Assembly: GCA_045661145.1 (NCBI GenBank)
Contig: JAZRFC010000075.1
Coordinates: forward strand, 20,763 to 84,762
Reading direction: 5' to 3'
DNA: 64,000 nucleotides
From: Clostridia bacterium
GTDB lineage: Bacteria; Bacillota; Clostridia; UMGS1883
The notes under the pieces: model-generated
The model's input: only the letters and a program-made list of their open reading frames with translations
What the model was told of the DNA's origin: nothing
Database searches by the model: none
Translations under genes and position numbers: made by a program
Shown: piece after piece, positions 41,176-64,000 of the stretch
Layout of the letters: every line of letters begins with the position of its first letter
How positions within the stretch are numbered: position 1 is the first letter of the stretch

Positions 41176-41189
41176 TTTATCATCTCCTC

Positions 41190-43981: not shown

Positions 43982-43987
43982 GCCTCC

Positions 43988-45817: not shown

Positions 45818-45824
45818 TGTGTAT

Positions 45825-46796: not shown

Positions 46797-46807
46797 TACG
46801 CCACCTC

Positions 46808-47362: not shown

Positions 47363-47643
47363 TCGGTATAGAAAATGAAAATAACGACTTTTCTTTTTAC
47401 TACTTGAATAAATGCTTCTATAAGCAAATTGACACCCTTAACAATTAAAGGGTGCCAATTTTATATTTATCCTATTTTGTACCCTTTAGAAACAAGCTCG
47501 GTAACAGTTTTCATACCGATTTCTTTGTTTTCAAAGAATATTTGTTTTGCATTTGGTGATTCCTTAATTGTTATAACTTTTTTATCCTCGTCTATCCACA
47601 CGGACCAAGCTTGTTCCATATTATATCATCATACCCCGCGAAA

Positions 47644-48357
47644 TTATTTTGCTTCTAAAATTGTTCTAAAGGTTTCAAGATCAACACCGTTTTTACCGTC
47701 CATGATAATAAATTCTGCCGTCTTTTCGCTAAAATTAAATCCCGACATTCTCATAAGTGGTACATCAAGAGAATTCACAAGCATAGCAGCAACTGTTCCC
47801 CTCGTAACATCATCAGGACCTTCTAAATATAAACCTGTAAATAACCCAAGTCTGCTTCCGGTCATCATATATCCATGTGGGAATTCACCTTGTTGTTCTG
47901 CCTTTTCCTTATATCCTAAAAGTGTAATAAGCATTTTTGCAAATTCCTGAACAGAAACATTCTTATCAGGCTCAAAAGTTGTTTCTGAAGTTCCTTCTAC
48001 CAATGCATTTACGTGTGCAAATGTAATTTCTTTTACTGCCCAATGATTTTCAATGTCATTGAAAGTAGGTCTGTATAGATAATCATTCAATATATCATTA
48101 TAATTCGCATTCATTCTTGTGATTAAAGCGGCTGCTTCTGCTCTTGTGATAACATCATCTAATCTTAAATTACCATCAGGATCGCCTTTAAGAATACCAA
48201 GTGACACCAACTCAGATGCCTCTGTTTCAAATGTAACAGGTGTACCGCCAATAATGTTGTCGCTCGCTACAGCCTTTTCTGTTGCAAATACGCTTATGCC
48301 CGAAAGCATCATAATCCCTACTAATATTAATGATAATAATTTTTTCATCAATCTCAT
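47644..48357 (-). CDS. SLH-domain-containing secreted protein
   Basis: Signal peptide, then ..GDPDGNLRLDDVITRAEAAALITRM.. and FNDIENHWAVKEI...FEPDKNVSVQEFAKMLITLLGY, which match the S-layer-homology consensus. Confidence 0.65.
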   Translation of the reverse strand: MRLMKKLLSLILVGIMMLSGISVFATEKAVASDNIIGGTPVTFETEASELVSLGILKGDPDGNLRLDDVITRAEAAALITRMNANYNDILNDYLYRPTFNDIENHWAVKEITFAHVNALVEGTSETTFEPDKNVSVQEFAKMLITLLGYKEKAEQQGEFPHGYMMTGSRLGLFTGLYLEGPDDVTRGTVAAMLVNSLDVPLMRMSGFNFSEKTAEFIIMDGKNGVDLETFRTILEAK

Positions 48358-48365
48358 CCTTTCAC

Positions 48366-49010
48366 TTATTTTGTTGCTAAATATTTGCTTTTTATTGTTT
48401 CTTCCGATATTTGATATTCCATCGTTTTTCCAAATGAAGTTTGCTGCATAAGAGGTACATCTATTGCTTTTATAAGGATTTTTGCAATCTCATTCTTGTT
48501 TATCACAAAATCTTCTGCATCGGGATAGAGGATGATTCCTATTTCATTTCCAACTTTTAAGTATCCGTGCGGATAACCACCTCTCTGCATTGCAAGTGGT
48601 TCGTAACCAAGCATAGTTACTAGTGTCTTCACGACTTCATAATATGTGATGTCTACATCAGGATTAAAAATATCATTTCCATATCCACACATGATTTTCA
48701 TACTTTGAACCACACCAATTTGATTTATGTATGGGTTATTATCGGGAACGTCAGTAAAAGTATTTGGCATCGTAACATTTGTCATTTTCAGAGTCTGTGT
48801 AACGATTTTTGCCATTTCTGATCTTGTAATGTTTTGATAAGGTCCAGAGCCAACATCACTCATTATACCTATCTCATACAACTGAGTTAATTCTGATTTA
48901 CGTGTAATCATTCCTTCATCTGTTGACATATTTTCAGCAAGCGCACAAACGCTTAAAAGCATCATAATTCCTACTAATACTATTGATATCAATCTCTTCA
49001 TAACATTCAT
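48366..49010 (-). CDS. SLH-like domain secreted protein (paralog of the preceding gene)
   Basis: FTDVPDNNPYINQIGVVQSMKIMCGYGNDIFNPDVDITYYEVVKTLVTMLGY, and it shares the GYPHGY segment with 47644..48357. Confidence 0.6.
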   Translation of the reverse strand: MNVMKRLISIVLVGIMMLLSVCALAENMSTDEGMITRKSELTQLYEIGIMSDVGSGPYQNITRSEMAKIVTQTLKMTNVTMPNTFTDVPDNNPYINQIGVVQSMKIMCGYGNDIFNPDVDITYYEVVKTLVTMLGYEPLAMQRGGYPHGYLKVGNEIGIILYPDAEDFVINKNEIAKILIKAIDVPLMQQTSFGKTMEYQISEETIKSKYLATK

Positions 49011-49028: not shown

Positions 49029-49187
49029 TTATTTGTCTCCATTCTTCTTTTTTCTTATCATAAGAATAATTAGTGTTATGAGCACCGCAAAGATAATTCC
49101 ATAAGCGATTATAAGGATTCCGTCCGGTTCACCTAAAAAAGCAAATATTTTATCATTCTGTGCTTCAGGAAGATATGAGTTTTTCAT
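49029..49187 (-). CDS. Possible small membrane peptide (52 aa): MKNSYLPEAQNDKIFAFLGEPDGILIIAYGIIFAVLITLIILMIRKKKNGDK
   Basis: Own translation. An AGGAGG lies 12 nt upstream. It has a C-terminal TM segment and a basic tail. It is not in the ORF track because it is under 60 aa. Confidence 0.3.
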   Translation of the reverse strand: MKNSYLPEAQNDKIFAFLGEPDGILIIAYGIIFAVLITLIILMIRKKKNGDK

Positions 49188-49203: not shown

Positions 49204-49530
49204 CTAATTTGTACTAAAATCAACTAACATTGTTCCCTTGTATCTTAGAGTCCCTTTTTGATTTATTGTATATCCGTTGTAGGAATACTCTGACACATAA
49301 AAGTTCAGTTTTTTATCTCCGGCAAGGAATGTTACAACATAAGAATCTTCGTCACAAAAGTTTTCAGCTTTTCTTGCAAGTCTGCTTTGATAATACTGTT
49401 TGTTTATTACTTTTGCTTCGACTTCTTTTTCGTTGCCGTATTTGTTCAAAATGATGCGTAAGAGAATTCCAACCGTAATTACAATTCCTATAAAGAGGAA
49501 TATAGTATTGATATAATCGCCTATACTCAT
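49204..49530 (-). CDS. Small membrane-anchored protein (DUF2500-like?)
   Basis: 108 aa with an N-terminal TM segment and a beta-rich tail. It lies downstream of HK1 and has a promoter-box-like sequence upstream. Confidence 0.5.
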   Translation of the reverse strand: MSIGDYINTIFLFIGIVITVGILLRIILNKYGNEKEVEAKVINKQYYQSRLARKAENFCDEDSYVVTFLAGDKKLNFYVSEYSYNGYTINQKGTLRYKGTMLVDFSTN

Positions 49531-49563
49531 AACATCACTCCGTTCTTTTTTCTTTGCTAAAGT

Positions 49564-49610
49564 ATATCATATAATGATATAAATTTTATTTTTATTGCAT
49601 AAAATGCACC
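49564..49610 (-). promoter_or_regulatory. Partial copy of a conserved promoter box (shared with 51713-51760 and 61847-61893)
   Basis: TATATCATATAAT...TTGCATAAAATGCAC. Confidence 0.4.
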
Positions 49611-49669
49611 TTTCTCTGTAAAATTGGTAAAAAAATAAATGCCGGACCCGAAGTTCGGCACTTATCTCA

Positions 49670-50956
49670 TTAAGAATTAAATATTATAAAAGATAATACA
49701 AATTCATTATCTGCTTGGTCTATTTTAAGCACATGATTATATTTTGAGAGTGCTTGTTTGATGTTTTCAAGACCAAAACCGTGATTTTCTTTATCTGTTT
49801 TTGTTGTTTTCATAGAAAGTTTTTTGCCTTTGCTTATGGAGTTAGAAATTTTGCAAAGGATAGCATCTTCTTCAAAGATAACAGATAGCTTTATATGCTT
49901 TTGTTCAGATTTGATTTTTTCACAAGCTTCAATGGCATTATCAAGACTATTACCAAAAATAATACATATATCTGTAGCATCAATAGACATTTTTTCAGGA
50001 ATCTGAACCGTCGATTCAAATTTAATATTCTTTTCTTCTGCCAGTGCTTTTTTTGTGCTTATAATAGCATCCAATGCAACATTTCCGGTATCAATAGTTT
50101 CGCCGGATATAAGTTTTTCACTCATTTCATCTATGTATTGAATACCGCCTTCATAGTCATTTCTTTGAAAGTAACCTCTTAAAGCAACCCAATGATTCTT
50201 TATATCGTGACGAAAACCTTTTATCTGATTTTGCATGACAAGAATATCGTCAAGATGTTTTGTCTGAGATTTTATCTGCTCTTTATATAATTGCTCTCGA
50301 TTCTCATATTCAGATTGCTTCGAAATATGTTCATATAAATACATAGAAGCAAATGCACTTGCAATAAGTCCAATACAAGTAAATAAAGCTACATTAAATA
50401 ATAATGGCTCATTTATATTATACATAAGTCTAAAAAGAACAAAAGCTGTTGTTATAGCAGGGGTAAAAACTACAACCAAAAGAATCCAATATGATGTTTG
50501 GACAAATAGTTTTTGATTTTTATATCTTAATCTTACAAAGTAGGTTATAAGCAAAAATATAAATTTTGAAGATAGTGCACCTGCAATCCAAAGAAGCTTA
50601 TTATCTATTAATTCAGATGTAGGAACGCCAAAAACAAGACCTAAAACATATAAAACAAACAATTCGCAACATCCGTTTAAAGTTATACCTATTATCGGAA
50701 TTAGTATCTTATTCTTTATGCTTCCTTTAAATAGCAGAGAAAAGAGAAATGCAACGAAATACATAATCAATGTATTTTGTAAAGTTCCAAAGTATAAATA
50801 AAAGCTTATATCAATAGTAACAGCAAGTACCAAATATCCAACAAAATATAGATATTTGGGCAGATCATCTTTTTTTTGCATAAATGTATCCAATATCATA
50901 TAAAAACAAGCTGATTCTATAAACCCTGTTAATAATTCAACTATCGTAAGCGTCAT
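49670..50956 (-). CDS. AgrC/LytS-like GHKL sensor histidine kinase (HK1), ~6 TM sensor domain
   Basis: A polytopic N-terminus is followed by an H-box (RHDIKNH) and an HATPase_c_5-type C-terminus. It overlaps the upstream LytTR regulator gene by 4 nt. Confidence 0.85.
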   Translation of the reverse strand: MTLTIVELLTGFIESACFYMILDTFMQKKDDLPKYLYFVGYLVLAVTIDISFYLYFGTLQNTLIMYFVAFLFSLLFKGSIKNKILIPIIGITLNGCCELFVLYVLGLVFGVPTSELIDNKLLWIAGALSSKFIFLLITYFVRLRYKNQKLFVQTSYWILLVVVFTPAITTAFVLFRLMYNINEPLLFNVALFTCIGLIASAFASMYLYEHISKQSEYENREQLYKEQIKSQTKHLDDILVMQNQIKGFRHDIKNHWVALRGYFQRNDYEGGIQYIDEMSEKLISGETIDTGNVALDAIISTKKALAEEKNIKFESTVQIPEKMSIDATDICIIFGNSLDNAIEACEKIKSEQKHIKLSVIFEEDAILCKISNSISKGKKLSMKTTKTDKENHGFGLENIKQALSKYNHVLKIDQADNEFVLSFIIFNS

Positions 50957-51672
50957 ATCCTATACTTCCTCTCTTTGAAATTAATAAAAGCAGTAGCAAC
51001 TTGCTTTTTGAATGTTCTGCTGATTGGGATAACCTTATCAGCATCATACAGAACGAGTTCTGTTTCTTTAATTTCACGGATATGATTGAGATTGATAACA
51101 AAAGATTTATGTACTTGAATAAACATAGTCTTGTCTATGCTATCATAAAGCTCTGCCATTGTTTTACAGATTTTATGTACTTTATCTTTTGTGTGAATGT
51201 GAATATAGTGCGCCTGACATTCAAAGTAAAGTATATCTTCACAAAAGAGTCTGATTTTGTTTCTGTTTTCTGTAAATACAAAAGTAGTACGTTCTTCCGA
51301 AAGTTTCTTTACTATATCGGCAAACACTTTATCAAATTCATCGTTAGAAACGGGTTTTATTAAAAATCTAAACGGCGAACACTCGAAGCAAGCCTGCATA
51401 TACTTTGTATGGCTTGTTACGAACACAATTATGACATGCTTATCAATTTTTCTGATAATATTAGCGGTTTCAATACCATTTAAGATATTCATTTCCATAT
51501 CAAGAAAAATTACATCATAATTGCCTTCGCCCATATTATACATCTTCACTAATTCTTCGCCGCTATAAAAGGCATCACAACTGACTTCGGGTTCGTTTTT
51601 ATCTAAAATATATTTCTCAAGAATATTTATGTATTCTTGGTTATCATCACATATTGCAATGTTCAACTCCAA
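50953..51672 (-). CDS. LytTR-family response regulator (AgrA-like; RR1)
   Basis: A receiver domain (LDMEMNILNGIE) with a C-terminal LytTR DNA-binding domain (FIQVHKSFVINLNHIREI). Confidence 0.88.
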   Translation of the reverse strand: MELNIAICDDNQEYINILEKYILDKNEPEVSCDAFYSGEELVKMYNMGEGNYDVIFLDMEMNILNGIETANIIRKIDKHVIIVFVTSHTKYMQACFECSPFRFLIKPVSNDEFDKVFADIVKKLSEERTTFVFTENRNKIRLFCEDILYFECQAHYIHIHTKDKVHKICKTMAELYDSIDKTMFIQVHKSFVINLNHIREIKETELVLYDADKVIPISRTFKKQVATAFINFKERKYRI

Positions 51673-51712
51673 TCATCCTCCTTTAGTTCTCACAAAAAAC
51701 TTTAAAGTTTAA

Positions 51713-51760
51713 TATATCATATAATAATGTATTCTTTGTGTTTTTTGCATAAAACGACAC
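51713..51760 (-). promoter_or_regulatory. Conserved ~47-bp promoter box upstream of the RR1-HK1 operon
   Basis: TATATCATATAATAATGTATTCTTTGTGTTTTTTGCATAAAACGACAC is near-identical (43/47) to 61847-61893. Confidence 0.55.
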
Positions 51761-52041
51761 TTAATTCGCAAAACTTGCATTTAATTATAACACAAACCGT
51801 GATACTTAACAAGTTTGCCCTGGCTATAACTATTTGTCTGACCGTCAAGCCAAGCACCGCGGATATATTTTTCGGAGACTGTTGGTATTATGCTATATAA
51901 TTTCCCATTTCCCTAACCTCATATTCTCTGTGCTTAAGGGCTGTACAAAGTTTTGATAACTATAATTCTAAATGATATATTTTCAAAATAGGTTTTTCAC
52001 TATATTTACTTTATCACAAATCTTACTTATTTTCCTTAGCT

Positions 52042-52764
52042 TTAACTCTCGTAAAAACTCGAATCTTCAAAAACATCTTTACTTACAATATATTCACACA
52101 ACATATCACGACCGTCACAATCAATAATCTCACATTCTTTATTGAGAACTAGCCCGCACTTTTCGCACAACATGTCTAGAAACTTAACAACACCTTCATA
52201 GCATTTTTCCATATATGTTTTTGTAAACATAGTTGCCAGCGATTCTTTAGTTGTCCCCATCGGTATTTTTGCATCGCTTGTTATATAATGACCTTCGGCA
52301 ATCTCATTGTTTTTAAAGTGAGTTATATCATTTCTTAACTTTATTATAGATTTTGTAAGTGAATAATAATTATCTCTCTTGATTTCAGAAAAATCCACAT
52401 GAAACATTGTGCAAATAAGTTGAAGTTTTACATTATGTGAGGTTTTTAGTATATCTAACTCCGTACACCCGAGTCTTCTAGTAATAATGGTATTAAGAGC
52501 AGTTTCGTATAAATTAACAATAAATGTTGCTGCGATAGAACCATGATAAAGATTTTTTAGAAAATCTTCTTCGTTTATTTCATCGCAAGAACCATCATCA
52601 TAACGTAAAACATTATCATCATTCATATATGAAATTGCATCTTCAACAATTTTTGTTGATAACTTTTCAAAATTCAAAAATATACCAAAAGCCATAATTA
52701 GCACCCCTCTTTTATCATAAATCGAACTACAGCGGATATGGAGAAAAATCACATTGTTTTTCAA
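52042..52764 (-). CDS. Hypothetical protein with a HEPN-like Rx4H motif
   Basis: Predicted all-alpha. It contains LRNDITHF (R-x4-H). The probable start is MAFGIF at ~52695. No other family was recognised. Confidence 0.5.
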   Translation of the reverse strand: MKNNVIFLHIRCSSIYDKRGVLIMAFGIFLNFEKLSTKIVEDAISYMNDDNVLRYDDGSCDEINEEDFLKNLYHGSIAATFIVNLYETALNTIITRRLGCTELDILKTSHNVKLQLICTMFHVDFSEIKRDNYYSLTKSIIKLRNDITHFKNNEIAEGHYITSDAKIPMGTTKESLATMFTKTYMEKCYEGVVKFLDMLCEKCGLVLNKECEIIDCDGRDMLCEYIVSKDVFEDSSFYES

Positions 52765-52846
52765 CCTTATGTAATATTATACCATTGTCACAAGAAAACA
52801 ACAAGGGTAAGGAGTTTATATTCCCTACCCTCAAAATTAACTTTTA

Positions 52847-54574
52847 TCATTCCACTTTTTCAGAGATAATTACTCTGCGCATATTCTCATCCCACACAAC
52901 GTTCATATCAAGTGCATCTGCAACAAATCTTACAGGGACAAGTGTACGGTTGTTGATAATAACACCAGGAGAATCAAGACTGACAGGAGCATTGTTAACC
53001 AAAGCTATATTATCTCCGATACCAAGTTTAATCACTGCTTCATCCTTAACTGCCGTCACGGAACTTGTATCTGAATCCCAGGAAATTTCACAGCCAAGTG
53101 TTTCAAATATTTTTCTCATCGGAACCAGAACTCTGCTGTTGATTATGACGGGAGTTGTATCAAAATACAAATCAAGTCCGTTTACATAAACGGTAATCGG
53201 TCTTTCAGCGGACGACTTTTTTTCAGAAGCATCATCTGGGAGTGTTAAAATTCCTGACTTTGTAATGCCTGTATTGTTATCAAGAATTGAAAAGCTGTAC
53301 TTATTCTTTTCTATATAACCTAAACTGAAAAACTCAAAAGGCGTTATTTCAACACCGTATTTGTTAATCAGCCCTACGCCCGAGTCTTTCTTCGAAGCTT
53401 CCGCAACACCATTCTTAAAGGGCTGAATATCCGAATAGATAAACTCTGTAATTCTGTTTCCGTTGTTATCCAGTACTGCTTTATCTGTTGCCGGAGGAAT
53501 CCGCCCTGTGTAGCCGCTAATTATATTTATCCCGATAAGAACTTCGCCATTGACCATTACATTATAATCTTTCCGAGGAATTTTTATTTGTCCGTTTTTA
53601 TCTATATGATACCATTTTTCTGCTTCCGGTTCCTCACAAACCTTTGCAAGACCGTTTTGAAATTCCCATGCATGACTATATTTGAAAGGTATAACAAGCT
53701 CCCATTCCTTGTTTATATATCCGTATTTTCCTTCTTCTTCGGAATACACCAATGCAAGATTGTCGCTGAATTTATAAGGGAAGCTTCCTGCAAAGTAATA
53801 AGAATTACTTTCATCATTCAGATTTATATACCTCCAACCCTTATCAAAGACAGCAACAATGTCGTCATCACAAATTTCCAAATCATCATAAACACATGGG
53901 AGAATTTCCTCATGCTCGTCACCTATAACACCGTACTTTCCGTCTTTCTTTACCTTTGTGATTTTATACGGCCGACCAGTATGGTATTCATCATAAGTTT
54001 TCACATTTAAAGGATTTCCTTTTTTATGAAAGCATTGACGCACACCACCTTTTATGGTATGTATAACTCCGCACATTTCGTGGATATAATCATATTCGCA
54101 CGGTAAAAGCTCTTTCCCGTTTTCATCTATCATACCATATTTTTCACTTGAAACAACAATTGAATATCCGTCGGTTATCGGAGAAACAATATCGTATTTA
54201 CTTACATCGAAAAGTGCATTTCCTGAAGCATCAATTATTATTTTTGAACCGCCTGAGCTTACAAAATATTTTCCCTCCGAGAAAACATACGCTTCATCAT
54301 AGATAAACGGAGCTATTGTATTTCCTGAAGTATCTATAAGACCTTGTCTCATAAGAAGGTTTTTATCCGTTACAGTAAGACGCGCGACCCCGTTTTCCCA
54401 TGAATAATCAATACACGTGCTTCTGTAGTCTGTTTCAGGCTCAATCCACTTTAACGAAATCCCGTAGTCTTTTTCTAAAGATTCTGCAGATACTTCTGCT
54501 AAAACGGGAAAAGCAAACAGAATCTGAAACAGCAAAACTGCCAATATGCTTCCTGTTATAAAGCCTTTTTTCAT
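52847..54574 (-). CDS. Secreted protein with WG-containing (KWG-like) repeats and two C-terminal copper-amine-oxidase N-terminal-like stalk domains
   Basis: Signal peptide, then repeated ..KYGYINKEWELVIPFKYSHAWEFQNGLAKV.. type WG repeats, then C-terminal ..VLVPMRKIFETLGCEISW.. and ..TLVPVRFVADALDMNVVW... Confidence 0.65.
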   Translation of the reverse strand: MKKGFITGSILAVLLFQILFAFPVLAEVSAESLEKDYGISLKWIEPETDYRSTCIDYSWENGVARLTVTDKNLLMRQGLIDTSGNTIAPFIYDEAYVFSEGKYFVSSGGSKIIIDASGNALFDVSKYDIVSPITDGYSIVVSSEKYGMIDENGKELLPCEYDYIHEMCGVIHTIKGGVRQCFHKKGNPLNVKTYDEYHTGRPYKITKVKKDGKYGVIGDEHEEILPCVYDDLEICDDDIVAVFDKGWRYINLNDESNSYYFAGSFPYKFSDNLALVYSEEEGKYGYINKEWELVIPFKYSHAWEFQNGLAKVCEEPEAEKWYHIDKNGQIKIPRKDYNVMVNGEVLIGINIISGYTGRIPPATDKAVLDNNGNRITEFIYSDIQPFKNGVAEASKKDSGVGLINKYGVEITPFEFFSLGYIEKNKYSFSILDNNTGITKSGILTLPDDASEKKSSAERPITVYVNGLDLYFDTTPVIINSRVLVPMRKIFETLGCEISWDSDTSSVTAVKDEAVIKLGIGDNIALVNNAPVSLDSPGVIINNRTLVPVRFVADALDMNVVWDENMRRVIISEKVE

Positions 54575-54599
54575 ACACGGTAGTCCCCTTTATCCAAAG

Positions 54600-56255
54600 T
54601 TATTTCTTCAAATCTACTTCCACAAGCATTTTATCATCCGAGGGAGTGTACAACAGCTTATTTTCGTGAATAAAAATGTTATAGTCGTAAATGGAGTCGC
54701 TTGAACGAAAAATATTTGTCGGACTAGAGAATACACAGGTGCGTATATCCTTGTCACCGTCCGTGTCCCCGTAGGAGCTTGTTACAAGCATTCCACCTTC
54801 AACATATGATTCTGTGGGAAGAGTTGTTTCAAAAAGGTGTGCTCCTGCACCGCTTCCGATGCCATAATTAAGATACATTTCAACAATGGATTTTTCATCG
54901 CTTTTTGTATGAAGATAGAGGGTATCACCTCTGAGAACACCGTTGTAAAGAGGGAGTGAACTTTCATTAATCACAATTGTTTTTCCGCTTGCGCTGCTGT
55001 AACGGTACATCTTGCCGTCCTGTGAATATACAATCATTTCGCTGTTTGATTTTGTGTCGTTGTCCCAGCCTGTGAAAGCAAGGAAACTTAATACATTTTC
55101 AATCATCGGAGTAAGTGTTTCTGTGTCAAGATTGTAGCGATAAAGAGAACTGTTATTTTCGTCATTTGTATTATATCCCGTAAGATAAATGTTGTTTCCG
55201 ATTATCTGAATATCATTATACTCGTGACCTTCGCTGCCATGCCAGCTGTCGTAAGAAGGATGCTTTTTTTCTGCAAAAACCGTGTTTTCTGCAAGGATTT
55301 CGGTATATTCTTCGCTTCCGTCCTTATAATAAATAACTCTTGAAGCACCGGGACCGCCGCCACGGAAAACCCTTACCGAGTATCCTTCAAGGTCATAAAC
55401 CTTTTCGTTGCCTCCGATAAAGCTATGGAAATAATCACCTTCAATAGAATCTTCGATAGTGCCGTCGGGATTTATTTTATAGCGGTAATCTCTGCCCATT
55501 GAAGCACCTGTGCGGAAGGAGAAGTACATTCCGCTATCCTGAAGTGAAAAGTTAATAAGATTGTTTCCGAAATCAGCATAACCGTTGGGTACGGTAGTAT
55601 GAATAAGCTCATTTGCGGTAGGATTGTCAACGGGTGTACGATAAATTTTTCTGTCGTTTCCCGTGTAGTAATAATATGTTCCGTCCGTTGCGGCGTTAGG
55701 CATAATCTGAGTTCTTAAATCGGGAAGGCCAAGTGTTTTACAGATATAATTATCCGCAGTTATCACAAGTCCGTTTTTGTCATCATAACTGTATTTCCAC
55801 TCGAATTCATCAACTGCAAAACGCCATGTGAGAGGGAAGTAAGTAACATCACGGAAAAGTATCAGGGGATATTTCTCATTTGTGTTGTCAATTTCTTTTC
55901 CGTTTACAATAATATTGAAATTACAAATAGTAATTTCGTTTGACTTACCGTTTTTCCATTCCCATTTATAGTTGCGGTATGCACCCGAAATATTTTCCTT
56001 TGTTATTTCAAGGGTGTTTGTATCGCTACTCCACTTTGTAGCAACACCGAGGAAACGGCAATCGTAATATGTCATGGGGAAGTACACAATATCCTTGTAC
56101 TGAAGCAGGGGATACTGTCTGTATGAATTATCCACGCTTTGTCCGGAAAGTGTAACGGAGCAGGCAGGGATATTTGCAACCTCTTTTGCACAAACATTTG
56201 ATGCAAAACAAAGGATGATTAGTGTGAATAAAATTGCAACTTTTTTCATGTTCAA
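54600..56255 (-). CDS. Secreted stalk-domain + beta-propeller-like protein (DUF5050-like), paralog 1
   Basis: A signal peptide is followed by two stalk-domain copies (QYPLLQYKDIVYFPMTYYDCRFLG and KYPLILFRDVTYFPLTWRFAVDEFEW) and a Tyr/Gly-rich repetitive C-terminal region. The first ~170 aa are about 80% identical to 56252..57988 and 60176..61804. Confidence 0.7.
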   Translation of the reverse strand: MNMKKVAILFTLIILCFASNVCAKEVANIPACSVTLSGQSVDNSYRQYPLLQYKDIVYFPMTYYDCRFLGVATKWSSDTNTLEITKENISGAYRNYKWEWKNGKSNEITICNFNIIVNGKEIDNTNEKYPLILFRDVTYFPLTWRFAVDEFEWKYSYDDKNGLVITADNYICKTLGLPDLRTQIMPNAATDGTYYYYTGNDRKIYRTPVDNPTANELIHTTVPNGYADFGNNLINFSLQDSGMYFSFRTGASMGRDYRYKINPDGTIEDSIEGDYFHSFIGGNEKVYDLEGYSVRVFRGGGPGASRVIYYKDGSEEYTEILAENTVFAEKKHPSYDSWHGSEGHEYNDIQIIGNNIYLTGYNTNDENNSSLYRYNLDTETLTPMIENVLSFLAFTGWDNDTKSNSEMIVYSQDGKMYRYSSASGKTIVINESSLPLYNGVLRGDTLYLHTKSDEKSIVEMYLNYGIGSGAGAHLFETTLPTESYVEGGMLVTSSYGDTDGDKDIRTCVFSSPTNIFRSSDSIYDYNIFIHENKLLYTPSDDKMLVEVDLKK

Positions 56256-57964
56256 TCCTCCTGTTCTTCAAACTTGACCTCTACCACACGACCGAGGTCT
56301 TCGGGGATGTAGAGAAGCTTGTCGCTTTCAAGAAAGTAGTTTGGGTTAATAATGTCGCTTGATTTGAACGGCTCGGGAGTTCCGCGGAAAATGCAGGTAT
56401 GAATATCTTCCCCTGGCATTTCGCCATAGGAACGGGTAATAAGCTTACCATCTCTTATATCTGTATCTGCACCGAGAAAGGTATCAAGGAGGGTGCGCCC
56501 GTCGTATTTGCATATTGCATATCTATCGTATTCTTTTACAATTGTATGGATTCTGTCATAGTCCTGAGTGCAAAGATATATTTTCTCCCCGATGGATATT
56601 CCTGTGTTAATGGGAAGACTGTTTTCATCAACGACTACATTTTCCTTGCTTTCAACAGAATAACGATATAATTTTCCATCACGGTAATAAAGTACTATAT
56701 CAGAATCTTTTTTGGAAGCATTATCCCAACCACGGAAAACAAAGAAAGAAGAAATATTATTAAGCACAGGTGAAACAGTTCCTGTTTGTGTGTCGACACA
56801 GTATAGATTACTTGGACTGTCATCTGATACATCCTGTATCTTCTCTTCAGTATCGTCAATCTGAGGATATCCTGTTAAATAAATATTTTCGTCTGTTACC
56901 TGAGGAACACTGTAGTAAGTCCAACGTTCCTGATTTTTATAACGCTGTTCACCGAAACGTATGTTTTCAAGAACAATCTGTTTGTCAATGCCGTCTTTTG
57001 TGTAATATACAATGGTGCTTCCGGGGTGTCCGCTATTATATCCCGATACGGAAAAACCGTCAAAATTCAGAGTGTAATGATTATATCCAGAGTATTTGTT
57101 TTGTGACCTTTCGATTTTTTCGAATGTTCCGTCAGAATTGATTTTATAATTATAGTCAATTCCCGTTGATGCTCCGCCTATATGATAAGAAACATATACC
57201 TGACCGTTGTCATAAGAAAAATATGCCATTGTTTGGTCAGAAATGTAGTTGTCGGGAATGGTGTGAATGCATTCATACTGAGATAAGTTGTGTGCGGGAG
57301 CGCGATAAATTTTGTTGTCTGTACACTCGTAATAGTAGTATTTTTTGTCGGCAGCGGCTGAAACAATCTTGTGATGATCGGGGACGAAAACAGGGAGTGT
57401 TCGGCAAATGTAGTTATCTGCGCTTATCTTAAGTCCGCTTTCCTCAGTATAGCTGTATTCCCAGCCGAATTCATCAACTGCAAAACGCCATGTGAGAGGG
57501 AAGTAAGTAACATTGCGGAAAAGTATAAGTGGATATTCCTCATTTTTATTGTCAATTTCTTTTCCGTTTACAATAATATTGAAATTACAAATAGTAATTT
57601 CATTTGACTTTCCGTTTTTCCATTCCCAGTTGTAGTTACGGTATGCACCCGAAATATTTTCCTTTGTAATTTCAAGGTTGTTTGTATCTCCGTTCCACTT
57701 TGTAGAAACACCGAGGAAACGACAATCGTAGTATGTCATGGGAAAATACACTATATCCCTAAATTGCAGAAGTGGATACTGACGATTAATACTGTCAACC
57801 TCTTGACCATTGAATGTAACTTTACACTTAGGAATGTACGCGTATTCTTCTACCTCTCCTATGGATTCATCACTGAATCCATAGGGATTCTGTGCCAACA
57901 CACACAAGGGAATCAGTATTATAATTATAATTAAAGAAATGACTTTCACAAGGTTCTTTTTCAT
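56252..57964 (-). CDS. Secreted stalk-domain + beta-propeller-like protein, paralog 2
   Basis: Same architecture as paralog 1. The start is probably MKKNLVKV at ~57964; the ORF extends to 57988. Confidence 0.7.
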   Translation of the reverse strand: MKKNLVKVISLIIIIILIPLCVLAQNPYGFSDESIGEVEEYAYIPKCKVTFNGQEVDSINRQYPLLQFRDIVYFPMTYYDCRFLGVSTKWNGDTNNLEITKENISGAYRNYNWEWKNGKSNEITICNFNIIVNGKEIDNKNEEYPLILFRNVTYFPLTWRFAVDEFGWEYSYTEESGLKISADNYICRTLPVFVPDHHKIVSAAADKKYYYYECTDNKIYRAPAHNLSQYECIHTIPDNYISDQTMAYFSYDNGQVYVSYHIGGASTGIDYNYKINSDGTFEKIERSQNKYSGYNHYTLNFDGFSVSGYNSGHPGSTIVYYTKDGIDKQIVLENIRFGEQRYKNQERWTYYSVPQVTDENIYLTGYPQIDDTEEKIQDVSDDSPSNLYCVDTQTGTVSPVLNNISSFFVFRGWDNASKKDSDIVLYYRDGKLYRYSVESKENVVVDENSLPINTGISIGEKIYLCTQDYDRIHTIVKEYDRYAICKYDGRTLLDTFLGADTDIRDGKLITRSYGEMPGEDIHTCIFRGTPEPFKSSDIINPNYFLESDKLLYIPEDLGRVVEVKFEEQED

Positions 57965-57977
57965 ATATACCACACCT

Positions 57978-59258
57978 TTACACGTCAAATATTATAAACG
58001 ACAATACAAATTCGTTTTCTTTCTGTTCTATGTTCAACACATGCTTGTACTTTGAAAGCGCTGCCTTGATATTTTCGATCCCATACCCATGGTTTTTTCT
58101 GTCCTGTTTCGTTGTTTTGAGACTCATAGATTTATTTTCCGCACAAGAATTTGATATTTTACATATAACACAATCTTCATCATATATAATCTGGATACAT
58201 ATATATTTTTTGTCTTTCAGTTTTTCACACGCCTCAATAGCATTATCCAGCGCATTTCCGAAAATAACACATACATCTATAGGTTCAATTCCAAGATTCT
58301 CATAAATTTGAATATTGGTTTTAAATTCTATTTTCTTACTTTCCGCAATTAACAGTTTTGAGTTAATTATTGCATCTAATGCAATATTTCCCGTCGAAAC
58401 ACTTCTTTGCGTTTTGGAAATAGCTTCATCCATAGATGCTATGTATGCCTGACCCCCTTTGCTGTCGTCACGTCTGAAATATTCTTCTATTGCTGCCATA
58501 TGATTTTTTATATCATGCCTGAATTTTCGCAGTTCTCCTTGCATGAAAAGGATCTCATCCAAGTGCTTTGCCTGTGATTTAATCTGCTGTTCGACCACTT
58601 GTTGTCTTCCAGTAATTTCTGCCTGCTTTGCCATATTTTCATACAAATAAATCACGAAGAAATTACTGAGCATCAATCCCACAGAGCATATAACAGTCAG
58701 TATACTCAATTCCTGTTTTGGATTATGGTATGAGAGATTAAAAAACAAAAACTCTGCTACTGTGGTACTCGCAAACACCACAAAAAACAAAATCCAGTAT
58801 GAAGCAGTTTTCTTAGATTTGTTTTTACCGCCATAACAAACAATCTTGAATACGGCAAATCCAAATATTTTGGAAATCACCGTTCCCAGATATCTGAGTA
58901 TATCTGACTCCATTAATTGCTCAGTTGTTATTCCAAAAATTGCAGAAAGTCCGAACATGGTAATTATTTCTGTAATAACGCTTAATAAAATTCCCAATGC
59001 TGCAATAACCGGACGAAGCAAAAACGGGCATCTGTAAAAAAGCGAAGAAGTTATGATTACTGAAAAAATAACCACAGCGTTCCATATACCGAAATTGAAA
59101 AACATATTACCTATAAAAATACACACCGCCATTATACAAATAACAAACGGACGAATCACACTATTTAGTACTTCTTTTTTTTCAAAATATGTATCCATCA
59201 GCATAAGGTATAAATACGCCTCAACAAAACAAGTCATAAGTGTCATCAAAATATTCAT
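57978..59258 (-). CDS. AgrC/LytS-like GHKL sensor histidine kinase (HK2), paralog of HK1
   Basis: Same architecture as HK1. The H-box region KHLDEILFMQGELRKFRHDIKNH aligns with HK1 KHLDDILVMQNQIKGFRHDIKNH. Confidence 0.85.
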   Translation of the reverse strand: MNILMTLMTCFVEAYLYLMLMDTYFEKKEVLNSVIRPFVICIMAVCIFIGNMFFNFGIWNAVVIFSVIITSSLFYRCPFLLRPVIAALGILLSVITEIITMFGLSAIFGITTEQLMESDILRYLGTVISKIFGFAVFKIVCYGGKNKSKKTASYWILFFVVFASTTVAEFLFFNLSYHNPKQELSILTVICSVGLMLSNFFVIYLYENMAKQAEITGRQQVVEQQIKSQAKHLDEILFMQGELRKFRHDIKNHMAAIEEYFRRDDSKGGQAYIASMDEAISKTQRSVSTGNIALDAIINSKLLIAESKKIEFKTNIQIYENLGIEPIDVCVIFGNALDNAIEACEKLKDKKYICIQIIYDEDCVICKISNSCAENKSMSLKTTKQDRKNHGYGIENIKAALSKYKHVLNIEQKENEFVLSFIIFDV

Positions 59259-59971
59259 ATTAGCATATATTTCCTTTCCTTGTAGTTGATGAACTTCTCC
59301 CCGAATTCTTTTTTGTATTTTCTGCCCAACGGAATTTTTGCATTACTTTCATAAAGAGATATTTCATTATCTTTAATTTCTTTAACATATGCCATATTAA
59401 CCGCATAAGAATTATGCACACGGCAAATTTTTTCTTCACTTACCACACGGCAAAGTTCACTTAGAGACTTATGTATACGATAAATTCGTTCTTTTGTATA
59501 AATAAAAAGTTGATGTGACTGACTTTCAAGGAAAATAATATCTTCACAGTAAAGTCTGACTTTCTCGCGGTTTTCCAAAAAAATCAATGTACTTCTTTCC
59601 TCGGAAAGCTTTTCTTCTATATCCCTCAAGGTCTTTTTAAAATCTTCAAATGACATGGGTTTTATTAAAAAGCGAAATGGGGTACATTCAAAACATTCAC
59701 GCATATACTGCGTATGCTGTGTCACAAACACAATTATTACATGCTTGTCCATTTTGCGTATCAGGTTTCCTGTATTGATTCCACTGATCCCAGACATTTC
59801 CATGTCAAGAAAGATTGCATCATAATTTTGTTTTCGACAGTCGTATGCTTTCAGAATTTCTTCGCCACTGTGAAAAACATCGTAATACGGAGCATTTCTC
59901 TCCATTGAGTCAAGGTATTTTTCAACAGTATTTATATATTCAAAACTGTCATCACATATCGCAATATGCAT
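59255..59971 (-). CDS. LytTR-family response regulator (RR2), paralog of RR1
   Basis: MHIAICDDSFEYINTVEKYL aligns with RR1 MELNIAICDDNQEYINILEKYI. It has a C-terminal LytTR domain. Confidence 0.88.
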   Translation of the reverse strand: MHIAICDDSFEYINTVEKYLDSMERNAPYYDVFHSGEEILKAYDCRKQNYDAIFLDMEMSGISGINTGNLIRKMDKHVIIVFVTQHTQYMRECFECTPFRFLIKPMSFEDFKKTLRDIEEKLSEERSTLIFLENREKVRLYCEDIIFLESQSHQLFIYTKERIYRIHKSLSELCRVVSEEKICRVHNSYAVNMAYVKEIKDNEISLYESNAKIPLGRKYKKEFGEKFINYKERKYMLI

Positions 59972-60175
59972 TTTGTCTCTCCCTCAAATGAATTTATTAA
60001 ATTATAACAGAAATTGCAATGTTTTCTCATATAATTACGCAGACAACACTTTTAGATTCCTAAATTACACAACATTTATATATACTTTCCGCAAATGTGA
60101 GCCATAACTAATGCAATCAAAACAGTTCTTATGAATTTTAATTTATTTTAAAGTTAAAAGGGAAAATTAATTCAA

Positions 60176-61804
60176 TTACGGTTTCAACTTAACTTCGCAA
60201 AATTCTCCTGTTTCTATATTTCTATAAATCAGTGTATCTCCAAAAATTGTGATTGCAGTCGCATCATCCGCACTTACAAATGGAGATCTCACATGGTTGT
60301 TAAACCCCTCGTTAGACGCATCAAATACAACAAGTCTTGCACTTGGGTTTTCCGATTTATCCCTTGCTACTAAGTAGCCATTCTGATAGCTGAAGCTTGT
60401 ATTCGTTGAAAAAGTCATTATTCTTTCTCTACCCTGGTACGGAGGTGGTACAGAACCGTTAGGATCCCCGTACACATCTACATGCGAGCCGTTATCGTCT
60501 TTTGTAATAACATACATTCCCCAAAACGGACTTTTTTCAACGTAAGCTTCGTCTTCCTGTATAATTTGTATCATATCCAGAAATGTTCCCGAATTTTCTC
60601 TCACTTCAAAATACTGTCCCGAATCAACATGATATTGGTCAAGACATCCATCACAAGTGTAAATAACCACTTGACCTCTTGTTTCGCTATCGTATGCCTT
60701 AAAATTATCAACATTGTCTTCTATTTCCAAAATCTTTCCGCTTTTAACATTTATGGAATACAAAATTTTTACTTCTTCCTCACCCTTATATCCGATTACA
60801 TAAATATTATCTCCTACAATCTGAGGAGGGATAACATCAAGCGACGAATGTCGTCCAGGTGTTCCAAAAGAGATTTCGGGGATTTTAACCTCGGTTCGGT
60901 TTTCCCCAACATAGTAGCAAAAGCTCCAATCGCCGGTAAAGAAAGACAATTCAGCCGTAACACCATCGCCGTAGGCACAATAGTAACTTGCTGGACCGCT
61001 TGCCTTTTCAGCCTCTGTAAGTGTTTTATCCTTATTGATATAATATTTATGGTCTGATCCCATCGTAGCACCGCCGCTGCGGTAGGATAAATAAACCTTT
61101 CCGTCTGCATAGCTGAGTCCTGCAGGAATTCCGCTTTCAATGTGGTGAATAACCTCCTGCTTGCCGAGATCATTAACAGGTGTTCTGTATATGTTTCCGT
61201 TGGCTGAATTATGATGGTAATAATACTCTCCGTCACAGGTAAATCCGGCATACGCACCGACCATTTCAAGAGCAGATAAGTCCAGCATCTTAACTCTGTG
61301 ATTAGATGAATTTATTACAAGCCCGTTTTTGTTGTCAAAAAAGTATTCCCATCCAAATTCATCGACCGCAAACCGCCAAGTAAGAGGAAAATATGTCACA
61401 TCACGGAAAGTCAGGAGTGGATAAGGTTCTGTTTTATTATCAATCGTTTTTCCATTTACAATAATATTAAAATTGCAAATACTAACATCATTTTCCGTTT
61501 GGTTCTTACTCTCGCTTTTATAGGCAGTAAGAACAGAATTTATATTCTTCTTTGATATAGTAAGAGTATTTGTTACTCCATCCCATGCAGTTACAATACC
61601 GAGATGACGGCTATCAAAATAGGTCATAGGGAAATATGTAATATCCTTGTATACGAGCAGTGGGTACTGTCTGAATTCATTTTCAACTTTGTTTCCATTG
61701 AAATAAACATCAAATTCAGGCAAAACTGCAATTTCTTTTGCTGACACAGACATCGCAGGTATTACCATTACGATAATCATCAAAACAATAAACATCTTTT
61801 TCAT
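60176..61804 (-). CDS. Secreted stalk-domain + beta-propeller-like protein, paralog 3
   Basis: Signal peptide, then the stalk repeats QYPLLVYKDITYFPMTYFDSRHLG and PYPLLTFRDVTYFPLTWRFAVDEFGWEY. Confidence 0.7.
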   Translation of the reverse strand: MKKMFIVLMIIVMVIPAMSVSAKEIAVLPEFDVYFNGNKVENEFRQYPLLVYKDITYFPMTYFDSRHLGIVTAWDGVTNTLTISKKNINSVLTAYKSESKNQTENDVSICNFNIIVNGKTIDNKTEPYPLLTFRDVTYFPLTWRFAVDEFGWEYFFDNKNGLVINSSNHRVKMLDLSALEMVGAYAGFTCDGEYYYHHNSANGNIYRTPVNDLGKQEVIHHIESGIPAGLSYADGKVYLSYRSGGATMGSDHKYYINKDKTLTEAEKASGPASYYCAYGDGVTAELSFFTGDWSFCYYVGENRTEVKIPEISFGTPGRHSSLDVIPPQIVGDNIYVIGYKGEEEVKILYSINVKSGKILEIEDNVDNFKAYDSETRGQVVIYTCDGCLDQYHVDSGQYFEVRENSGTFLDMIQIIQEDEAYVEKSPFWGMYVITKDDNGSHVDVYGDPNGSVPPPYQGRERIMTFSTNTSFSYQNGYLVARDKSENPSARLVVFDASNEGFNNHVRSPFVSADDATAITIFGDTLIYRNIETGEFCEVKLKP

Positions 61805-61846
61805 AATATACCACCTTTAGTTCACTTAAAAATTCTTGAATTTTAG

Positions 61847-61893
61847 TATATCATATAATAATGTATTCTCTGTGTTTTTTCATAAAAAGACAC
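61847..61893 (-). promoter_or_regulatory. Conserved ~47-bp promoter box upstream of paralog 3
   Basis: TATATCATATAATAATGTATTCTCTGTGTTTTTTCATAAAAAGACAC. Confidence 0.55.
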
Positions 61894-62080
61894 TTTATTT
61901 GTAAAACTCGTAATTAATTATATCACTATTCTTTAAATTTAACAATCTATATTAATATACATTATATGGATGCAAAGAAAATATATTTATTTCTTTTTCT
62001 TCTTATGCTTTGCCCATATTTTTTCACCTCCTGCGAGACAAAGCATACCACATAAGAGAGAGGAAGTCCACGAAGTTTTT

Positions 62081-62446
62081 TTACAATCTTCCATGTCTTT
62101 TCTTAACATTTTCGATTGCCATCTCTTCAATGTCTTCCATGTAGTACTGAGTATAGGCACCACTCATGATCATCGTTTGCTTTTCAATGCTGACAGCAAA
62201 TTTGAAAAGCATATCGGCGACTCTGTCTGTGTGACCGGCGATTGTACAATCTACTGCCTGAACCAACAGTTTATTCATGTATGTACCTATGCTATCATAC
62301 TGAAGTTTTGAGAGATATTCTTCGATAGCTTCACCGCAAAATGCACTCTCACTTTTGTAGCCAAGGTCCTCAACATAATTTTTAATTTGTCTTTGAACCT
62401 CGATAGGAACATTGAAAGTCATCTTAACTTTTTTGTTCTTCTTCAT
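62081..62446 (-). CDS. Ribbon-helix-helix (CopG/MobC-like) protein, probable relaxase accessory factor
   Basis: The N-terminal MTFNVPIEVQRQIKNYVEDLGYKSESAFCGEAIEEYL fits an RHH fold. It lies immediately downstream of the relaxase gene. Confidence 0.5.
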   Translation of the reverse strand: MKKNKKVKMTFNVPIEVQRQIKNYVEDLGYKSESAFCGEAIEEYLSKLQYDSIGTYMNKLLVQAVDCTIAGHTDRVADMLFKFAVSIEKQTMIMSGAYTQYYMEDIEEMAIENVKKRHGRL

Positions 62447-62464: not shown

Positions 62465-63596
62465 TTACATTCCGTGATGGATACCCATCGCAGTATCTTT
62501 TCTGTATTCTTTTGTTCTTTCTTTTGAATCCACAATTGATTTTGTGAATCCTTCCTGGATGTCATGGTCAATGGACTGCTCAAACATTTTACAGAGATTG
62601 AATACAATGTCAGCATAGACTGGTGTAGCTCTGACTGTATTTGTATATAAATTGTTCCGCTTATTATCGTAGAGAGTCGCTTTTAAAACAGCATTTGCTA
62701 AGCGTTTTTGGAGATTAAGATTGTTCTCCAGACTATCGAAACATTCTTCAGGATCCTTGCGATAATATTTCAAGAGAGCCAACTGAACCTGACACCATTG
62801 TTGATACAATTCTTGCAGGTTTAGATCCTTGCTTACGACTTTTACAACCGCATCGACTTTGTCTTTTTGCTCACGAGAAAGGAACTGATAATTTTTCTTG
62901 CCGGTGTATCCTGCAAGAGACAATTTCAATTCATAAAACGCACCGACAAACTCATCGGGAGCTTGACCAACATCAGCACTAAACTCACTGACTTTTTCTT
63001 TCACGGACTCAACAATTTTATCTCGAAGAGATTGTCTCGCATCATAGAGCTGCTGCATCTCATCTTTGAATATAGTTTTGGTCAGCGACTCCTTGTAGCG
63101 TTCATAGTCTCTCGGGCAAATAAATTCGCCGCCGGGTTCCTTATTATACACAAGAAAATGAACATGATAGTGGCCTTGCTCTTTATGAAAGGCAGCGTAC
63201 CATTTCATATTTTCAGCAGGAATTCTGTGGTAGGATGCTATATCAAACTGCTTCGACCTGAGAAGATTTCTCCACGCATCAGGCGTATCATATCCAAGTC
63301 TTTCTGCATCAGTTTGCCTGAGAGATATGATTTCTTCCCAGACAATTCCTTTGTGATGATATATTTCCTGCGATGCCTTATGGAGATTTACATAGTCCTC
63401 TTGACCAAACAAACCATGTTCGCCCATCTTTACAACCCCAGATCTCTCGGCAGCATATTGAGTGAACACATCCGACCTGTACCTTGTATTAATTGTTTTA
63501 TCAACTCTGTCTCTCTTTGAAATATATTCTGTGAATCCGCCGCCGACAGGTTTACCTGTCTTGCAGTATCGTGTTGATATAAAAACTTTACTCATA
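62465..63596 (-). CDS. MobP/MobA-VirD2-like relaxase (mobilisation nuclease)
   Basis: The histidine motif HKEQGHYHVHFLV is of the H-x-[DE]-x2-H-x-H-x-H type, and Tyr residues sit near the N-terminus. The start was reassigned to ATG 63596 (MSKVFISTRY) behind a GGAGG RBS. The ORF extends to 63748. Confidence 0.6.
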
Positions 63597-63644
63597 ATTT
63601 TTCCTCCAATCTCAAAAATTCTTGTAATTTTGAAGACACCTGTT

Positions 63645-63680
63645 TTAACACCTGTTGAAACGCCCACACGGTGCGGGTCG
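63645..63680. promoter_or_regulatory. GC-rich inverted repeat upstream of the relaxase gene, candidate oriT/nic region
   Basis: GTGCGG-GTCGACGGGAATA-CCGCAC lies within an unusually GC-rich 250 bp directly 5' of the relaxase gene. Confidence 0.3.
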
Positions 63681-64000
63681 ACGGGAATACCGCACACCCA
63701 AACCGCACCTGTAGATGCATTTTTCAAACTCTCCGCCGGGCTTTGCACGGCGATGTAAGCCTGCTTGGGGCGGATAACGCACCAAGCTTTATCCTGCTTC
63801 CTTCAAAAACACCACGCCTCGCCGTTTCGGGGCGCCCCATCAGGTGATTTCTCGTACTTCCGTTTGTTCTTTTAAATCGATTTTAAGGGTTTAACATAGG
63901 GCTTATCTCTTCGGTTCGAGAGGTTAACTTTTCAGGGTGGTGTAACTACCTTACCCCAAATAGTTATATGCTGAAACCCCGCCTTAAGCCCTTGGTCATA

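Follow-up and report, generated by a model that had tools for sequence, protein, structure and literature searches.

A mobilizable element of a Clostridia bacterium carries two AgrC/AgrA-like receptor modules without linked agrBD and a putative LytTR-dependent promoter box

Introduction

Clostridia genomes commonly encode pairs of AgrC-like histidine kinases (HK) and AgrA-like response regulators (RR) that lack agrBD, most of them uncharacterised. A 64-kb stretch of an uncultured gut or rumen Clostridia genome (assembly GCA_045661145.1, contig JAZRFC010000075.1; hereafter the window) contains two such cassettes, RR1-HK1 (module 1) and RR2-HK2 (module 2), and raises the question of what these receptors respond to and which genes they control. 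An earlier note, made from the sequence alone, had read the cassettes as wired to a family of secreted stalk/propeller-like proteins and as sharing a 47-bp promoter box. Here we report that both cassettes are cargo of a probable integrative mobilizable element (IME), that they lack linked signal genes and that the box, kept beside orthologous regulators, has the anatomy of a LytTR-dependent promoter. The conserved genes behind it are predicted to be a surface-protein operon rather than the propeller family.

Two AgrC/AgrA-like cassettes without agrBD

All open reading frames (ORFs) named in the earlier note were recovered at their coordinates on the minus strand (Table 1), and the two cassettes are indeed paralogous and AgrC/AgrA-like. 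Both kinases combine a polytopic sensor with an HPK10/HATPase_c_5 module containing the H-box histidine, and both regulators consist of a receiver and a LytTR domain. Of the profiles proposed as checks, HATPase_c_5 and LytTR matched both kinases and both regulators, respectively, and DUF5050 gave no match. Among solved structures, the kinases come closest to the AgrC kinase module of S. aureus and the regulators, at full length, to pneumococcal ComE. In NCBIfam, both kinases match the AgrC model best, over residues 40-421, but at about 60 bits they stay far below its equivalog cut-off of 500. HK1 has about 6-7 hydrophobic segments within residues 1-205. The H, N and G boxes are intact in both kinases (motifs FRHDIKNH, LDNAIEA and GxGxxNI), and the receiver features IFLD at D58, IKP and VTS are present in RR1, as read from the sequence and an alignment with ComE. 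RR1 and RR2 share 51% identity, HK1 and HK2 41% overall (27% in the sensor half, 55% in the kinase half), and at both junctions regulator and kinase genes overlap by 4 nucleotides (nt). The hairpin of an intrinsic terminator separates HK1 from the box upstream of the DUF2500 gene. The proposed translational coupling of RR2-HK2 to the downstream gene par2 holds as tight linkage, but the genes do not overlap; a 13-nt gap lies between them and a Shine-Dalgarno sequence overlies the HK2 stop codon.

As the earlier note had stated, genes for an AgrB peptidase and an AgrD propeptide are not linked to the cassettes. Neither AgrB (PF04647) nor AgrD was found in Pfam scans of 46 larger ORFs of the window, seven ORFs at 23.9-30.7 kb having been left out. 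Searches of the window by tblastn with AgrB from two related loci (L016 and L017) and with the AgrD-like peptide of L016 gave chance-level matches only (E >= 4), and in the intergenic DNA of the element no small ORF was found that resembles AgrD and is preceded by a ribosome-binding site. Because AgrD peptides are short and divergent, the absence of AgrD is weaker evidence than that of AgrB. Within 10 kb, agrBD was likewise found neither in the window nor in seven RR1-type loci from other sequences (L008-L013, L081-L083). Two candidates were rejected: a weak AgrB match by tblastn in L012 (E 0.04-0.07) corresponds to an ORF for a DUF11-type protein, and p52, a small protein encoded downstream of HK1, is a C-terminally anchored membrane protein and not AgrD-like.

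Table 1. Features of the window, in order of position
Feature	Position	Strand	Remarks
tRNA-Pro(cgg)	37939-38015	+	Integration site at element edge; ARAGORN and Rfam
Tandem tyrosine recombinase genes	39745-41193 and 41190-42365	-	Pfam Phage_integrase and Phage_int_SAM_3
Distal operon after DUF2500	43988-49010	-	Two SLH genes, 50-amino-acid gene, p184, p323, Cu_amine_oxidN1 protein
Cu_amine_oxidN1 protein	43988-45874	-	Pfam Cu_amine_oxidN1; distal gene of operon after DUF2500
50-amino-acid gene	47467-47619	-	Among SLH genes; not in the gene list behind the earlier note
SLH proteins	48366-49010 and 47644-48357	-	Pfam SLH
p52	49029-49187	-	52-amino-acid single-pass membrane protein; weak resemblance to FtsW/RodA segment
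DUF2500 membrane protein	49204-49530	-	PF10694, E 2.2e-11; first gene of downstream operon predicted to be box-driven
Box copy 3, P_DUF2500	49561-49623	-	TTTTACAGA-N12-TTATGCAAT-N27-TATACT; upstream of DUF2500
Terminator after HK1	49625-49672	-	Hairpin -17.5 kcal/mol, z = -5.1, then U-run
HK1	49670-50956	-	AgrC-like kinase; Pfam HATPase_c_5, E 1.9e-25
RR1	50953-51672	-	Pfam Response_reg and LytTR
Box copy 1, P_RR1	51711-51773	-	TTTTGCGAA-N12-TTATGCAAA-N27-TATATT; upstream of RR1
Upstream sigma-70-like promoter	51784-51812	-	TTGTTA-17-TATAAT with TG; duplicate at 61917-61945
Weak-HEPN protein	52042-52764	-	Sub-threshold Pfam matches (E ~2e-3) and RNDITH motif
WG/Cu_amine_oxidN1 protein	52847-54574	-	Pfam WG_beta_rep and Cu_amine_oxidN1
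par1	54600-56255	-	Secreted paralog in 8.2-kb block
par2	56252-57964	-	Secreted paralog in 8.2-kb block, 3' of HK2
HK2	57978-59258	-	AgrC-like kinase; Pfam HATPase_c_5, E 2.3e-28
RR2	59255-59971	-	Pfam Response_reg and LytTR
P_RR2	60001-60030	-	Extended -10 promoter (TGTTATAAT); no recognisable direct repeats
par3	60176-61804	-	Secreted; double stalk-like N-domain, C-terminal beta-propeller
Box copy 2, P_par3	61845-61906	-	TTTTACAAA-N12-TTATG-AAA-N27-TATACT; 1-nt deletion in second repeat; upstream of par3
121-amino-acid MobL partner	62081-62446	-	Same order with MobL in L009 and L011
MobL relaxase	62465-63748	-	PF18555, E 1e-19

A promoter box conserved beside RR1-type regulators

The 47-bp box described in the earlier note is real and precedes RR1, par3 and DUF2500, but it runs about 16 nt further upstream; the 47 bp cover the second repeat (R2) to the -10 element and miss the first repeat (R1). 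In gene direction the box reads R1 (TTTTRCRRA), 12 nt, R2 (TTATGCAAW), 27 nt and an extended -10 (TGATATAYT). R1 and R2 are 9-bp direct repeats spaced 21 bp start to start, the 12-nt spacer contains AAAGTGT or AAAGGTG, and the 27-nt stretch lacks a good -35. The 33-nt core is matched twice in the window (0.00 expected) and the two-repeat pattern three times (0.30 expected), always on the minus strand, with no further copies in the 64 kb. The identity between P_RR1 and P_par3 is about 84% across some 130 nt that take in the upstream TTGTTA-17-TATAAT promoter as well as the leader to the ribosome-binding site, and P_DUF2500 has in common with them R1, R2, their spacing and the -10 only. The upstream promoter of RR1 is possibly a basal promoter reading through the box. 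A function of box and leader as an RNA element was considered and rejected, there being no Rfam match and folding z-scores of -0.07, +0.96 and +0.65.

Loci for comparison were collected via homologues of HK1 and RR1; a scan of genome contigs with RR1 gave five loci, three of them useful. Seven independent RR1-type loci outside the window (L008, L009/L010, L011, L012, L013, L081/L082 and L083) range from 58% to 98% in regulator identity and include both chromosomal and mobile settings, RR1 being 94-98% identical to the regulators of L009, L011 and L081. Their layouts are RR-HK-SLH-SLH in L008, MobL-p121-RR-HK-HK-DUF2500-SLH in L009/L010, a regulator followed by three tandem kinases in L081/L082 and a chromosomal RR-HK pair followed by SLH or Cu_amine_oxidN1 proteins in L012 and L083; the contig of L013 stops within the regulator gene. 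The box precedes the regulator in every one of these loci and again precedes the first post-kinase gene wherever the sequence reaches past the last kinase (L008, L009, L011, L012 and L083). The 14 box instances align without gaps, R1, R2 and the -10 being conserved and the DNA between them variable. In about 330 kb of related DNA, at up to 2 mismatches, the box was not found away from regulator or kinase genes.

These comparisons make the box a candidate LytTR-dependent promoter, as judged from its anatomy and its retention beside orthologous regulators. Because the box is kept before the first gene after the kinase, the conserved box-driven output is predicted to be the post-kinase operon encoding SLH proteins, with DUF2500 as its first gene in L009/L010 and L011. 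The wiring of the cassettes to the stalk/propeller family did not hold beyond this locus: par3 orthologues from other genomes belong to surface-protein clusters of the par3/par1/WG kind or lie on different elements, with neither a two-component system nor a box, and the paralogs are thus a local link and not a conserved output. Of the shared LytTR-dependent regulon proposed earlier, the promoter anatomy and its conservation stand, but cassette 2 has no recognisable box or repeats. The anatomy of an autoinducible promoter (two repeats about 21 bp apart, weak -35) was seen in module 1 and not found in module 2; searches for direct repeats in P_RR2 and the other intergenic regions, and for an L016-type repeat in the window, gave nothing credible.

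Scans of metagenome contigs with the box, and of viral contigs with the box and with RR1, did not extend the regulon; they show only that copies of the box are infrequent in these sequence sets. The 62 box matches in metagenome contigs were set aside as chance or unrelated because no relative of a window protein lies nearby. Eight of these contigs (L028, L032, L039, L040, L051, L052, L072 and L077, two of them labelled human gut) share an unrelated recurrent promoter-like sequence that matched the box pattern, in which TTTTGCGTAAG is repeated before TGATATTCT and a strong ribosome-binding site.

Sensor halves are exchanged behind a conserved regulator

Comparison of HK1 with its homologues revealed a mosaic. 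One homologue (P0128) resembles HK1 in both halves (kinase half 80%, sensor half 78%), whereas P0129-P0150 have 82-91% identity in the kinase half and only 34-43% in the sensor half (P0129: 91% and 40%). At a 60% threshold, at least 12 sensor types were distinguished among the HK1 homologues. The same is visible in the DNA of the window and L009, where the regulator gene is 91% and the kinase half 82% identical and a sensor-coding segment of about 600 nt does not align. The number of tandem kinases also varies, from one (window, L008) to two (L009) and three (L081), with unrelated sensors behind regulators that are 94-98% identical. At 1773-6264 of L081 and 1298-5789 of L082, three tandem AgrC-like kinases with differing sensor halves lie behind a regulator that has 98% identity to RR1. 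The first of these kinase genes is split into ORFs of 58 and 339 amino acids, possibly by a frameshift.

Such a sensor/kinase mosaic is a hallmark of peptide pherotype systems (agr, com, blp). This mosaic, found here with no signal genes linked to it, is our main argument that the ligand is polymorphic and probably a peptide.

Relation to agr loci and other known systems

HK2 has few close relatives. A 72% identical kinase (L018) lies in an RR-HK pair that is followed 11 nt later by a protein with a par-type N-domain. Further relatives lie in two loci of uncultured Clostridia, L016 and L017, to whose kinase and regulator HK2 and RR2 are 50% and 62% identical, respectively. Both are RR-HK-AgrB loci followed by a Cu_amine_oxidN1 protein. 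At 9643-10405 of L016 the AgrB gene is followed by a 57-amino-acid peptide (MKKFKSIAKRF...NSPCTCPFYEPDEP...) that we judged AgrD-like by its layout. L017 has a truncated AgrB ORF of 136 amino acids, and AgrD was not detected in it. The promoter before agrB in L016 reads CGTTTACGAAA-N10-CGTCTACGAAA, 28 nt, TATACT, with repeats 21 bp apart start to start; it directly follows the kinase terminator, and the layout in L017 is the same. Because this agrB promoter shares architecture and position with the post-kinase box, module 1 looks like an agr locus with surface-protein genes in the agrBD slot. The window resembles L016/L017 in the order RR-HK, in the terminator and repeat promoter that follow the kinase (module 1) and in the secreted Cu_amine_oxidN1 proteins downstream. 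It differs in what fills the agrBD slot, namely DUF2500/SLH genes in module 1 and par2 and par1 in module 2.

With staphylococcal agrBDCA the window shares a polytopic HPK10 kinase of the AgrC type, a receiver-LytTR regulator of the AgrA type, a hypervariable sensor half next to a conserved kinase half and regulator, and, in module 1, paired 9-bp direct repeats about 21 bp apart beside a weak -35. Positive autoregulation is predicted for the window as well. Unlike agrBDCA, the window lacks AgrB, AgrD and an RNAIII-like effector, has the gene order RR-HK, is carried on a mobilizable element and has a surface-protein operon as its predicted output. The AgrA site is ACAGTTAAG, whereas the repeat of the window is TTWTGCAAA.

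AgrC-like kinases with VirR/LytTR-type regulators unlinked to agrBD are represented by VirS/VirR of C. perfringens and RgaS/RgaR of C. difficile, which likewise have direct repeats phased by about 21 bp upstream of the -35 and a small direct regulon, the latter being predicted for the window. The cassettes of the window are orphan pairs of this type, as are those of the seven related loci throughout. However, RgaS and RgaR are unlinked, whereas kinase and regulator adjoin with a 4-nt overlap in the window, and window-type loci are set apart from both systems by multi-kinase arrays and exchanged sensor halves, the window also by its location on a mobile element. VirS is reported to sense an agrBD peptide, whereas RgaS does not. 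In experimentally tested RgaR/VirR-type repeats, G residues at -51 and -72 are critical (PMC10602386). The window box was compared with these repeats in its phasing, which is 21 bp in both (PMC10602386).

Parts of an agr system on a mobile element without the full set are also found on C. perfringens plasmids, although the AgrC-like kinases there are only about 32% identical. C. difficile phage phiCDHM1 reportedly carries agrB, agrD and agrC without agrA, whereas the window has a receptor pair without signal genes. This phage, too, is a mobile element with a partial agr set (PMC3901668). Orphan AgrC/AgrA-like systems and mobile elements with partial agr sets are thus already known; the variant features here are the location on a mobilizable element, single or tandem kinases with exchanged sensors behind one invariant regulator, the candidate TTWTGCAAA operator and the predicted surface-protein regulon.

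Both cassettes are cargo of a probable integrative mobilizable element

Positions 1-37.9 kb of the window are ordinary chromosome with mur/mraZ genes, ribosomal protein genes, nusG and a signal recognition particle (SRP) RNA. The GC content is about 43% up to tRNA-Pro and only 32-38% beyond it, tandem tyrosine recombinase genes lie beside this integration site, and a MobL relaxase follows near the end of the window, beyond which the element extends. Both cassettes are cargo of this probable IME, whose size we estimate at roughly 29 kb. No type IV secretion system gene was seen in the far ends of the sister elements L011 and L009, which carry DUF6076, an AlpA-like gene and an HTH_36 gene.

L011, a contig of a metagenome-assembled genome in GTDB ('Clostridia bacterium', SGB_2768), carries a version of this element that is 91-97% identical in nucleotide sequence and abuts the same tRNA. 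Missing from it are window positions 51985-60176 (8.2 kb), which correspond exactly to RR2-HK2-par2-par1-WG-HEPN (blastn, tblastn and junction alignment). Cassette 2 therefore sits in an 8.2-kb indel polymorphism; the block may have been gained here or lost from the relatives. L011 also lacks 43863-45825 and 38061-39662. The latter, a 1.6-kb segment between tRNA-Pro and the first integrase gene (GC 32% over 38001-40000), holds an ORF for a 482-amino-acid protein (38212-39660, plus strand) with no Pfam, NCBIfam or PADLOC match. Within the element, two pairs of direct repeats of about 40 nt are 80-81% identical (43109-43149 and 62041-62081; 39663-39699 and 43158-43194), and 62041-62081 sits just after the gene of the relaxase partner. 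These repeats may be module junctions or oriT/att-like sites.

Proposed function and alternative explanations

We consider it probable, with moderate confidence, that the IME carries two agr-derived receptor modules without signal genes and that RR1 activates the three box promoters. HK1 would detect an extracellular cue through its polytopic AgrC-type sensor, most likely a peptide supplied from elsewhere in the host or by the community, and would phosphorylate RR1. Phosphorylated RR1 is predicted to bind R1 and R2, which lie upstream of the poor -35 and the extended -10 and would be centred near -65 and -44 if transcription starts 7 nt after the -10. Activation of P_RR1 would provide positive feedback over the basal upstream promoter, activation of P_DUF2500 would induce the DUF2500-p52-SLH surface operon down to about 43.5 kb, and in this lineage P_par3 would respond as well. 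Module 2 is expected to be transcribed from its own constitutive-looking promoter together with par2, par1 and probably the WG gene. A terminator was not seen in the DNA from par3 to RR2, so module 2 may also receive read-through from the putatively box-driven par3, which could couple it to module 1.

Several points weigh against this explanation. The C. difficile AgrC-like kinase RgaS does not respond to AgrD1 (PMC10602386), so membership in the family is no proof of a peptide ligand, and our search for agrBD in the source genome was confined to the window. The similarity of P_RR1 and P_par3 stems from duplication, not convergence, because it spans some 130 nt and reaches into both the upstream promoter and the leader. 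Within one promoter R1 and R2 agree at only 6-7 of 9 positions, and the reading as repeats therefore rests on conservation across promoters. The repeat units are also partly palindromic (TTTGCAAA; TTTTATGCATAAAA in L008), which leaves room for a dimeric helix-turn-helix protein at the box. Finally, repeat searches of P_RR2 and the intergenic DNA did not locate a target site for RR2.

The kinases might instead sense an envelope or antimicrobial stress, or another cue foreign to agr, and drive a surface-remodelling stress circuit through the same promoters. The absence of agrBD within 10 kb in the window and the seven RR1-type loci examined, the unresponsiveness of RgaS to AgrD1, and the envelope nature of the predicted outputs (SLH proteins, DUF2500, the small FtsW/RodA-segment-like protein) would all fit. 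However, a sensor half exchanged among at least 12 types on a kinase half that stays 85-91% identical, with unrelated sensors in tandem, fits a polymorphic ligand better, and relatives 50% identical to HK2 adjoin AgrB and an AgrD-like peptide. We regard a non-pheromone cue as unlikely, if still the most serious of the alternatives. Clearly more doubtful is the idea that RR1 does not act on the box, which would be a promoter module spread by duplication or recombination, or the operator of another dimeric regulator. P_RR1 and P_par3 are evidently homologous by descent and the repeat units are near-palindromic, yet P_DUF2500 and its counterparts before SLH genes share only the repeats, their spacing and the -10 with the regulator promoters and keep them at 58-98% regulator identity. 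In about 330 kb of related DNA the box was not seen away from regulator genes at up to 2 mismatches, a canonical relative has this layout before agrB, and Pfam scans of the element's ORFs in the window revealed no other DNA-binding regulator near either cassette. Last, the cassettes could be decaying remnants of full agr loci that no longer signal, as canonical relatives carry agrBD directly after the kinase and one kinase of L081/L082 is split. Because the catalytic motifs are intact in both kinases, the receiver features of RR1 look intact and conservation is strong, we hold decay to be very improbable: RR1 orthologues keep 94-98% identity between elements in which MobL has only 78%, and module, box and terminator are kept in seven loci.

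Beyond the preferred model of signal-less receptor modules, we tentatively suggest that the RR1-type module, with one to three tandem kinases serving a nearly invariant regulator and sensor halves of a dozen or more types, is a mobile 'listening post' through which the element or its host may read several peptide pherotypes of the host or of foreign cells, which it does not make, and may switch on SLH and stalk/propeller proteins borne by the element; this extension is speculative. The locus offers a defined candidate operator, in which two TTWTGCAAA repeats are spaced by 21 bp, a defined predicted surface-protein regulon of three promoters and a conserved regulator that naturally comes with a series of kinases differing in their sensors. 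Should the sensors recognise peptides from other sources, a mobile element would be listening in on agr-type signalling in gut or rumen communities, and the locus would be convenient for mapping sensor-ligand specificity. Otherwise it would be a further orphan LytTR two-component system that controls envelope proteins.

Surface-protein genes and further observations

That the downstream genes encode secreted or surface proteins, as the earlier note had suggested, is supported by the SLH and Cu_amine_oxidN1 domains and by N-terminal hydrophobic segments in both SLH proteins (SLHa, SLHb), p184 and p323. The proteins of the distal operon are 80-96% identical to those of L011, except for 43863-45825, and DUF2500 occupies an equal position in L009, L010 and L011. 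The small protein p52 (MKNSYLPEAQNDKIFAF...) resembles positions ~245-290 of the FtsW/RodA (SEDS) profile (E 1.6e-5 in Pfam, 1.3e-5 in NCBIfam). Homologues of 52-56 amino acids are encoded downstream of the kinase(s) in L009 (15511-15681 and 20799-20957) and L011 (12486-12641). The 50-amino-acid gene encodes a protein without a hydrophobic segment (ME..WSVWIDExKK.IT...KGYK.G), and relatives (50-54 amino acids) were found in L009 (17060-17224) and L083 (13482-13634 and 16303-16455).

The secreted paralogs par1, par2 and par3 are 34-48% identical to one another, but their matches to the Cu_amine_oxidN1 stalk domain are sub-threshold (E 9e-5 to 8e-3). The AlphaFold model of par3 (predicted local distance difference test 83, predicted template modelling score 0.80) consists of a signal peptide, an ordered N-terminal double domain and an all-beta C-terminal domain. 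'Propeller-like' holds for par3 as a fold and nothing more, because the Foldseek matches to this model are all beta-propellers (for example LRP6, WD40 and tricorn). In total, 1321 par3 homologues were found. The WG-repeat/stalk protein was identified as described before, and its gene is followed by a terminator at 52802-52833. The presumed HEPN-motif protein does contain the RNDITH motif, but its Pfam matches stay below threshold, and PADLOC did not credibly assign it to a defence system.

The SRP RNA of the chromosomal part, of the bacterial large type, was located at window positions 15276-15541 on the plus strand (Rfam, 198 bits). In L083, downstream of the RR-HK-SLH module, positions 16769-18445 contain a gene with a Phage_Mu_F/ribonuclease domain and, after it, four Barstar-like genes in tandem.

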